Shown here: one piece after another, positions 32,867-46,500 of the stretch
Position numbering within the stretch: position 1 is the stretch's first letter
How the letters are laid out: the number at the start of each line of letters is the position of its first letter
Origin: Escherichia coli
GTDB lineage: Bacteria > Pseudomonadota > Gammaproteobacteria > Enterobacterales > Enterobacteriaceae
Assembly: GCF_051903065.1 (NCBI RefSeq)
Contig: NZ_CP178438.1
Length of the DNA stretch: 64,000 nt
Reading direction: 5' to 3' (one strand)
The notes under the pieces: generated by a model
What the model saw: only the letters and a program-made list of their open reading frames with translations
Database searches by the model: none
What the model was told of the DNA's origin: nothing
Program-made: the position numbers and the translations under genes

Positions 32867-33188
32867 GCTTCGACATCCTTCGCAAATCTTATACAAGTAA
32901 GATGGAATAAACCGGGGTCAGAGAGGGGGCTGTTCAAAACCTCGCCAACTCTAGAAATACAATTTAGAGAATTAGGGCGAGCCGTCAAGCATTTGACAGG
33001 GGACAGGGGGCAGGTATGAATCAAAAATTTGAAGCAGTTAACGCTATTGACAGGAATGTGACAGATGTCGCTGATGCCAACGATAGATGATAGTTATCTA
33101 TCATGTGGAGTAGATTGGTCAGGCAAATAAGCTCTTGTCAGCGGCAGGGCGTTCTGCCGATAACCGTAACCGAAGATGATAACTGACA

Positions 33189-43563: not shown

Positions 43564-46500
43564 TTGAGCCAGGAATACACTGAAGACAAAGAAGTCACAT
43601 TGACAAAGTTAAGTAGCGGCCGCCGCCTTCTGGAGGCGTTGCTGATCCTTATTGTCCTGTTTGCCGTCTGGTTGATGGCTGCCTTACTAAGCTTTAACCC
43701 TTCGGACCCCAGCTGGTCGCAAACGGCCTGGCATGAACCTATCCATAATTTAGGTGGGATGCCCGGTGCGTGGTTGGCAGATACGCTGTTCTTTATTTTT
43801 GGCGTGATGGCTTACACCATTCCCGTCATTATTGTCGGCGGTTGTTGGTTTGCCTGGCGTCATCAGTCCAGCGACGAATACATTGATTATTTTGCCGTTT
43901 CGCTACGCATCATTGGCGTTTTGGCGCTCATCCTTACCTCCTGTGGTCTGGCGGCAATCAACGCTGACGATATCTGGTATTTTGCCTCCGGTGGCGTCAT
44001 TGGCAGCTTACTAAGTACTACGCTACAACCACTGCTACACAGTAGCGGGGGAACTATTGCGCTGCTCTGCGTTTGGGCTGCGGGCCTGACGCTGTTCACC
44101 GGTTGGTCATGGGTGACCATTGCTGAAAAACTCGGCGGCTGGATTTTAAACATTCTCACCTTCGCCAGTAATCGTACCCGTCGCGATGATACCTGGGTCG
44201 ATGAAGATGAATATGAAGATGACGAAGAGTATGAAGATGAAAACCACGGCAAACAGCATGAATCACGCCGTGCCCGTATTCTTCGCGGCGCGCTAGCGCG
44301 TCGTAAACGGTTGGCGGAAAAATTCATTAATCCGATGGGGCGGCAAACAGACGCTGCGTTGTTCTCCGGTAAGCGGATGGATGATGACGAAGAGATTACC
44401 TACACTGCACGCGGTGTGGCTGCCGACCCGGACGACGTCCTATTTTCGGGCAATCGTGCAACGCAGCCAGAATATGACGAATACGATCCATTATTAAACG
44501 GTGCGCCAATTACCGAACCTGTCGCTGTAGCAGCTGCTGCTACCACGGCGACACAAAGCTGGGCTGCGCCGGTTGAACCTGTGACTCAGACGCCGCCTGT
44601 TGCCTCTGTTGATGTTCCACCCTCGCAACCTACAGTAGCCTGGCAGCCTGTACCGGGTCCACAAACGGGAGAGCCGGTTATTGCTCCTGCACCGGAAGGT
44701 TACCCACAGCAGTCACAATATGCGCAGCCTGCAGTGCAATATAATGAGCCGCTGCAACAACCAGTACAGCCGCAGCAGCCGTATTATGCACCTGCAGCTG
44801 AACAACCTGCGCAACAACCTTACTACGCTCCTGCGGCGGAACAACCTGTTCAGCAACCGTATTACGCAACTGCGCCGGAACAGCCTGCACAACAGCCGTA
44901 TTATGCCCCTGTGCCAGAACAACCGGTGGCAGGTAACGCCTGGCAAGCCGAAGAGCAGCAATCCACTTTTGCTCCACAGTCTACATACCAGACTGAGCAA
45001 ACTTATCAGCAACCAGCCGCTCAGGAGCCGTTGTACCAACAGCCGCAACCTGTTGAACAGCAGCCTGTTGTGGAGCCTGAACCCGTTGTAGAAGAGACAA
45101 AACCCGCGCGTCCGCCGCTTTACTACTTTGAAGAAGTGGAAGAGAAGCGAGCCCGTGAACGTGAACAACTTGCGGCCTGGTATCAACCGATTCCAGAACC
45201 GGTTAAAGAACCAGAACCGATCAAATCTTCGCTGAAAGCACCTTCTGTTGCAGCAGTACCTCCAGTAGAAGCCGCTGCCGCTGTTTCTCCGCTGGCATCT
45301 GGCGTGAAAAAAGCGACACTGGCGACGGGGGCTGCCGCAACCGTTGCCGCGCCAGTCTTCAGTCTGGCAAATAGCGGTGGACCGCGTCCGCAGGTCAAAG
45401 AGGGGATTGGCCCGCAGTTGCCACGACCGAAACGTATCCGCGTGCCAACTCGTCGTGAATTGGCGTCTTACGGTATTAAGCTGCCCTCACAGCGTGCGGC
45501 GGAAGAAAAAGCCCGTGAAGCCCAGCGCAATCAGTACGATTCTGGCGATCAGTACAACGATGATGAAATCGATGCGATGCAGCAGGATGAACTGGCACGT
45601 CAGTTCGCCCAGACACAGCAGCAACGCTATGGCGAACAGTATCAACATGATGTGCCCGTAAACGCAGAAGATGCAGATGCTGCGGCAGAGGCTGAACTGG
45701 CTCGTCAGTTTGCGCAAACTCAACAACAACGTTATTCCGGCGAACAACCGGCTGGGGCGAATCCGTTCTCGCTGGATGATTTTGAATTTTCACCAATGAA
45801 AGCGTTGCTGGATGATGGTCCACACGAACCGCTGTTTACGCCAATTGTTGAACCTGTACAGCAGCCGCAACAACCGGTTGCGCCACAGCAGCAATATCAG
45901 CAGCCGCAACAGCCGGTTGCGCCGCAGCCGCAGTATCAGCAGCCACAACAGCAGGTTGCGCCGCAGCCACAATATCAGCAGCCGCAACAACCGGTTGCGC
46001 CACAGCAGCAATATCAGCAGCCGCAACAACCGGTTGCGCCGCAGCCGCAGTATCAACAGCCGCAACAACCGGTTGCACCGCAGCCGCAGTATCAGCAGCC
46101 ACAACAGCCAGTTGCGCCACAGCCGCAGGATACCCTGCTTCATCCGCTGTTGATGCGTAATGGCGACAGCCGTCCGTTGCATAAACCGACGACGCCGCTG
46201 CCTTCTCTGGATTTGCTGACACCGCCGCCGAGCGAAGTGGAGCCGGTAGATACCTTTGCGCTTGAACAAATGGCGCGTCTGGTGGAAGCACGTCTGGCTG
46301 ATTTCCGTATTAAAGCCGATGTCGTCAATTACTCTCCGGGGCCGGTTATCACTCGCTTTGAACTTAACCTGGCACCGGGCGTAAAAGCGGCGCGCATTTC
46401 TAACTTGTCACGGGACCTTGCCCGTTCACTTTCGACGGTGGCGGTGCGTGTCGTTGAAGTTATTCCTGGCAAACCCTATGTAGGTCTGGAGTTACCAAAT

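Follow-up and report, generated by a model that had tools for sequence, protein, structure and literature searches.

Two 39-bp tandem-repeat arrays in the FtsK linker of Escherichia coli correspond to known strain-typing loci and vary by whole units between lineages

The window analysed here, a 64,000-nucleotide stretch of Escherichia coli DNA (contig NZ_CP178438.1), carries ftsK, encoding the DNA translocase FtsK, on the plus strand at 43564..47670, where the ORF listing gives 1368 aa plus stop. A megablast search showed that this gene is 100% identical over all 4107 bp to ftsK as annotated in strain 23CRST027, whose RefSeq coding sequence agrees with the window ORF in coordinates and length. 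Across complete E. coli genomes, megablast identity in ftsK was at least 95% in all but one of 5426 matching records. The window and 23CRST027 also showed differences elsewhere: the latter carries a 14.2-kb island absent from the window, and the window's prophage end is absent from 23CRST027.

Four Pfam domains were detected in the protein, each far above its gathering cut-off: FtsK_4TM (PF13491, aa 20–191), FtsK_alpha (PF17854, aa 879–979), the FtsK_SpoIIIE motor (PF01580, aa 987–1200), and FtsK_gamma (PF09397, aa 1303–1363). The 4TM, alpha, P-loop motor, and gamma (KOPS/XerD) domains that define an FtsK/SpoIIIE translocase are therefore all present, and the protein matched the E. coli FtsK crystal chain 2ius with an E-value of 0. 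The ftsK gene of K-12 MG1655 is 3990 bp long and encodes 1329 aa. Alignment of the two proteins opened only two gaps, adding 26 aa (block 1) and 13 aa (block 2) to the window protein, and outside these gaps only six substitutions were found. Residue numbering taken from K-12 FtsK shifts by 26, and then by 39, residues in strains like the window's.

Both gaps fall in arrays of in-frame 39-bp units, of which the window carries 4 + 7 and K-12 carries 2 + 6. Block 1 (44773..44928, plus strand, aa 404–455) comprises four units that in codon register read QQPYYAP(A/V)(A/P)EQP(A/V), and corresponds to allele 4 of the MLVA locus ms06; Tandem Repeats Finder reported it at 44779..44924 with a period of 39, 3.7 copies, 76% matches, and a score of 145. 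Block 2 (45853..46128, plus strand, aa 764–855) comprises seven units followed by a closing Q codon and corresponds to ms07 allele 7, or CVN001 allele 6. Its units follow the pattern (PV/QY)QQPQQ(P/Q)VAPQ(P/Q), the first beginning with PV and the next six reading QYQQPQQ(P/Q)VAPQ(P/Q), and Tandem Repeats Finder placed it at 45859..46128 (period 39, 6.9 copies, 89% matches, score 414). Between the two lies a non-repetitive stretch of linker (44929..45852, plus strand, aa 456–763) in which Tandem Repeats Finder found no array and whose protein sequence was identical to that of K-12 in the alignment. An earlier note, made from the sequence alone, had described two in-frame 39-bp arrays of about 4 and 7 copies in the FtsK linker and a protein longer than that of K-12; the repeat finder and the codon register bear out the arrays, and the lengths of 1368 and 1329 aa bear out the comparison. 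The interval given in that note, 44779..46128, spans both arrays together with the 924 bp of non-repetitive linker.

The 39-bp periodicity is far beyond chance. At a lag of 39 nt, 87 of 117 positions matched in block 1 and 204 of 234 in block 2, whereas in 300 codon-shuffled copies of ftsK the best 117-nt window averaged 46.4 matches (sd 2.6) and reached a maximum of 58. Units of block 2 are more alike (89%) than those of block 1, among which mean pairwise DNA identity was 76%. The arrays also differ in composition, block 2 being 49% Q and 28% P (77% P+Q) and block 1 being 25% P, 23% Q, and 21% A. In both, codon differences between units were mainly synonymous, with 35 synonymous versus 14 non-synonymous differences in block 1 and 52 versus 10 in block 2.

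Six further ORFs overlie the arrays in other frames. Over block 1 these run at 44678..44977 (minus strand, 99 aa), 44713..45186 (minus strand, 157 aa), and 44681..45091 (plus strand, off-frame, 136 aa); over block 2 they run at 45790..46269 (minus strand, 159 aa), 45836..46291 (minus strand, 151 aa), and 45812..46153 (plus strand, off-frame, 113 aa). Six ORFs of 99–159 aa might suggest genuine overlapping genes, but the translations of all six are periodic and merely give the repeat as read in other frames, neither the CAG/CCG-rich units nor their complement include a stop codon, and the ORF lengths would change with each copy-number allele. RefSeq annotation of the strain with the 100% identical ftsK, moreover, lists ftsK alone at the arrays and none of the six. 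We consider it extremely improbable that these are real genes; they arise from repeat units that lack stops, as had been claimed for the opposite-strand ORFs, and gene callers should disregard such long off-frame ORFs.

Strain-typing schemes already use both arrays as markers. The ms06 primers match the window exactly at 44663–44682 and 45022–45041 and bracket block 1, defining a plus-strand amplicon of 379 bp (44663..45041), which is allele 4; the corresponding K-12 amplicon is 301 bp, allele 2. The published locus has a 39-bp unit and alleles 2, 3, and 4 with sizes of 301–379 bp (PMC8215070 Table 1). Block 2 is bracketed by exact matches to the ms07 primers at 45599–45618 and 46205–46224, giving an amplicon of 626 bp (45599..46224, plus strand) in the window and 587 bp in K-12, within the published size range of 392–821 bp, or 1 to 12 units of 39 bp (PMC8215070 Table 1). 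The same array is amplified by the CVN001 primers of a generic E. coli MLVA scheme, published with the formula (size-250)/39 (PMC8143711). These match exactly at 45746–45764 and 46210–46229, with none expected by chance, and the resulting amplicon of 484 bp (45746..46229, plus strand) yields 6.0, or allele 6, by the formula; the 445 bp of K-12 yield 5.0, or allele 5.

We then determined how copy number is distributed across E. coli. Whole-gene megablast matches often broke at the arrays, and array lengths were therefore read with flank-only BLAST queries (350 bp on each side), the two pieces being joined across the array. The samples, 60 records for block 1 and 59 readable records for block 2 out of 5426 RefSeq complete genomes, were drawn at even steps down the BLAST ranking; they are neither random nor corrected for phylogeny. 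Block 1 alleles of 2, 3, and 4 units were found in 19, 17, and 23 records, respectively, with a 63-bp variant in the remaining one. For block 2, 6 units (n = 23) and 7 units (n = 26) predominated, alongside single records with 4, 5, 8, and 11 units and two with 9; 4/59 records carried a 24-bp internal deletion. Strains thus differ by whole units (2–4 in block 1 and 4–11 in block 2), as is characteristic of a variable-number tandem repeat, and copy number is not identical across E. coli alleles but varies among them, as the earlier note had expected. The two major block 2 classes are alleles 5 and 6 in CVN001 numbering, and their frequencies agree with those published, in which alleles range from 4 to 8 with modes at 5 and 6 (about 40% each as read from the table). 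The protein database search recovered E. coli FtsK lengths of 1368, 1381, 1394, 1407, 1420, and 1433 aa, each 13 aa longer than the one before; this homologue search, run with full-length FtsK, returned only E. coli and Shigella alleles, and extra repeats raise the score.

The window's 4 and 7 units are the commonest class of each array in the sampled genomes, and the 1329-aa FtsK of K-12 is a short variant and not the species norm. The earlier description of the repeats as expanded is therefore accurate relative to K-12 and does not hold for the species as sampled. One might still ask whether the extra units are an assembly artefact in one sequence, given that short reads can yield a wrong assembly of tandem repeats of ~270 bp. 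This possibility is negligible and was rejected: ftsK is identical (100%, 4107 bp) in an independent complete genome, the same array lengths recur in 23/60 (block 1) and 26/59 (block 2) sampled complete genomes, and PCR sizing in typing studies gives the same alleles (ms06 379 bp, CVN001 allele 6). The concern about an artefact that accompanied the original observation is settled by the same recurrence. The arrays nonetheless need care in short-read assemblies.

Comparison of individual alleles revealed how the arrays have changed. We fetched eight further ftsK alleles and cut their arrays into units. The order of block 1 units is A-B-C-D in the window, A-E in K-12 (E being D with one base changed), and A-B-F in strains B, E143, and 2014C-3307. 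Unit F consists exactly of the first 17 nt of C and the last 22 nt of E, a chimeric structure that must have arisen when a 4-unit allele lost sequence through an out-of-register deletion. In strain H22, a deletion of 57 bp begins outside the array and takes out unit A along with the PVQPQQ codons ahead of it. Within block 2, a run of five units (195 bp) is perfectly duplicated in strain E143 (11 units), whereas UM146-type alleles carry one truncated unit and strain 2014C-3307 displays an O-P-O unit pattern. Every allele examined was in frame and annotated as a full-length FtsK of 1329–1407 aa.

Units B and C, which are absent in K-12, are only ~76% identical in DNA to their neighbours. Since about a quarter of positions differ, these units are old and cannot be a recent duplication in the window's strain. 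Elsewhere in Escherichia, block 1 has 4 units in L011 (titled E. coli SCPM-O-B-8794) and 5 in E. whittamii. Judging from these unit sequences and counts, the short K-12 form of block 1 is most simply explained as a contraction; for this array the direction implied by "expanded" is probably the reverse of the true one, as the old, diverged units and the chimeric C/E unit both suggest.

Copy number is fixed within clones and differs between lineages, which marks the arrays as slow minisatellites. Of the 60 genomes nearest to the window in their flanking sequence, 54 had 7 units in block 2, including every O157:H7 (roughly 35) and O55:H7 genome in this set; the other six had 6 units (n = 3), 4 units (n = 1), or 8 units (n = 2, O145-type). 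Likewise, a Swedish study found CVN001 to be monomorphic in the ST131 clone (PMC5217547). This clonal constancy indicates that the arrays change on the timescale of lineages and not of culture. The earlier note had called the repeats replication-slippage hotspots: changes of the slippage type are indeed seen among the alleles, but the word hotspot overstates the rate for arrays that are constant within clones. The underlying observation is thus confirmed, and its first interpretation is partly supported. Neither frame-shifting nor high within-clone variability, by which a contingency locus is recognized, was found. A phase-variation switch was considered and rejected because a 39-bp unit is divisible by three and copy number holds steady within clones.

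Next, we examined the arrays beyond E. coli. One genome per species was scanned with a degenerate DNA pattern for the 10-residue repeat peptide; the exact peptide was required, and the resulting counts are lower bounds. Matches spaced by 39 bp occurred in E. coli, Salmonella arizonae, and four Citrobacter genomes, including C. sedlakii and C. amalonaticus. Single pattern matches were obtained in E. whittamii and another Escherichia species, along with single chance matches in unrelated bacteria, and the representative genome of S. enterica gave no match to the exact-peptide pattern. All enterobacterial block 2 units, about 4 to 8 in number, sit at the same place between shared flanking peptides, GPHEPLFTP on the upstream side and one containing L(L/I) on the downstream side. 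The position of block 2 and nearly the same peptide are accordingly conserved in Escherichia, Salmonella, and Citrobacter. Block 1, with its PYYAP units, was seen in the same scan only in Escherichia (2 to 5 units) and was absent from the FtsK of Salmonella and Citrobacter. A 39-bp array in Salmonella ftsK, described as a "variable PQ repeat region", serves as the typing locus STTR7/SENTR2 (PMC2430564). Its position in ftsK, its 39-bp unit, and the peptide shared with S. arizonae and Citrobacter identify it as the orthologue of block 2.

In the protein, the two arrays are flanked by the membrane domain of FtsK on one side and its alpha domain on the other, and they fall outside any Pfam domain. 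Searches of Pfam and of structures returned no domain and no solved FtsK structure for aa 192–856, and the aligned part of the E. coli crystal construct of FtsK begins at aa 857, just past block 2. The E. coli FtsK linker has been described as long (about 650 aa), unstructured, and dispensable for motor activity in vitro (PMC5345879, PMC2680272, PMC3870252). We favour the view, with a probability of roughly 0.88, that the arrays are two coding minisatellites (ms06 and ms07/CVN001) in the FtsK linker that undergo slow, slippage-type change and act as a flexible spacer. Each unit of 39 bp corresponds to 13 codons, such that gain or loss of whole units keeps the reading frame. Copy number changes when units pair out of register, either by replication slippage or by unequal homologous recombination; the traces of such mispairing are chimeric units, duplications of several units at once, and now and then a deletion between short direct repeats in or beside the array. 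The rate of change is low, with alleles fixed within clones and differing between lineages. The P/Q-rich, low-complexity units are most likely disordered and would form a flexible spacer in the ~650-aa tether that runs from the septal anchor (aa 20–191) to the hexameric motor (aa 879 onward), in which gain or loss of 13–65 aa may be tolerated and near-neutral.

The conservation of the block 2 peptide in three genera, combined with the mainly synonymous differences between units, indicates that the peptide is under purifying selection. Such selection on a repeat peptide would not obviously be required of a purely passive spacer. It bears on a rival view in which copy number is functionally tuned: the 13-aa units would serve as multivalent binding sites for divisome or DNA-associated partners, or would set the reach of the motor, and selection would keep different unit numbers in different lineages, within the narrow ranges of 2–4 and 6–7. 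In favour of tuning, synonymous differences between units outnumber non-synonymous ones, the block 2 peptide and its position are retained in Escherichia, Salmonella, and Citrobacter, and the distribution is narrow (mostly 6–7 units in block 2 and 2–4 in block 1). If true, it would explain both why the peptide is conserved despite synonymous divergence and why block 2 is conserved across genera. Yet this essential gene tolerates 4 to 11 block 2 units in our sample and 1 to 12 as reported, block 1 is missing altogether from Salmonella and Citrobacter FtsK, and the repeat units have no Pfam domain and no known structure or partner. In the one recorded allele swap, moreover, S. Enteritidis ftsK alleles two repeats apart were exchanged and survival in egg white, the single condition assayed, was unchanged (PMC6137255). 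Tuned copy number is therefore an unlikely account, and we retain the reading of slowly changing minisatellites in a flexible spacer.

Comparison with described repeat systems places the arrays in familiar company. Block 1 is the same as ms06 of the Gorgé et al. panel in primers, unit, alleles, and sizes, with no difference. Block 2 is the same as ms07 and as CVN001 of the generic MLVA of Lindstedt et al. 2007 in both primer pairs and in unit; CVN001 numbering runs one below the count of all block 2 units. Typing of E. coli, Shigella, and Salmonella has routinely used both arrays since about 2007–2008, and the literature describes the FtsK linker as a variable P/Q-rich region, which makes the present finding an ordinary one. 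STTR7/SENTR2 resembles block 2 in position and peptide, but belongs to a different genus and has other copy numbers (9.3 in S. Enteritidis). A further parallel is the 45-bp repeat of tolA (SENTR1), a disordered P/Q- or P/A-rich repeat linker that varies in copy number. Like the FtsK arrays, the tolA repeat consists of in-frame, low-complexity units that are polymorphic between strains and belong to a tether joining a membrane anchor to a functional domain, although the protein is different and the sequence unrelated.

Among the ftsK alleles fetched, the longest was that of E. coli E143 (locus L002), in which block 2, the second of the two 39-bp arrays in the FtsK linker, comprises 11 units and the protein reaches 1407 aa. 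This 11-unit allele arose when a run of five successive units, 195 bp in all, was perfectly duplicated. In Salmonella Typhimurium, a 195-bp in-frame deletion in ftsK has been reported independently (PMC8627665). Together, the duplication in E143 and the deletion in Salmonella Typhimurium suggest that five-unit steps recur.

A degenerate DNA pattern for the 10-aa block 2 peptide, run on one genome per species, also matched single sites in unrelated bacteria (loci L010, L012-L016, L020 and L024), namely Streptomyces, Bifidobacterium, Demequina and several metagenome bins. These single matches are probably P/Q-rich stretches that arose by chance.

The FtsK linker contains further repeats. Just upstream of block 2, one 14-aa peptide is present twice, at window positions 45589-45630 (aa 676-689) and 45694-45735 (aa 711-724). 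With a spacing of 35 residues, the two copies form a dispersed repeat, which was absent from the TRF output and which alignment showed to be kept in K-12 (MG1655). In addition to the two arrays, a third short in-frame repeat lies at 44200-44241, has a period of 18 bp (and 6 bp) with GATGAA-type units (TRF score 63), and encodes a 14-residue acidic run; alignment with K-12 revealed an identical copy there.

Outside ftsK, a P2-like prophage has its left end in window 60066-64000, adjoining pflA. Its integrase ORF (60153..61148, minus strand) is followed by genes for an HTH regulator, a Cox family protein and replication protein B, as annotated in matching genomes. At least 80% of window 59800-64000 was matched in 382 of 5426 complete E. 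coli genomes. This prophage end is missing from strain 23CRST027.

Despite carrying an ftsK identical to that of the window, 23CRST027 harbors an island of 14.2 kb that separates yljB/cspD from clpS and spans positions 18883-32000 of L027 and 1-1104 of L028, two sequence pieces of that strain. A 22-bp direct repeat borders the island on both sides, and the window has the empty site, with the 22-mer present as one copy (33083-33104). The genes of the island encode an integrase, an Icd-like protein, a DUF927 protein and an HNH endonuclease, together with a major capsid protein, an HK97 protease, a portal protein, a head-tail connector and the small and large terminase subunits. Judged by gene content, the island looks like a capsid-forming phage satellite.
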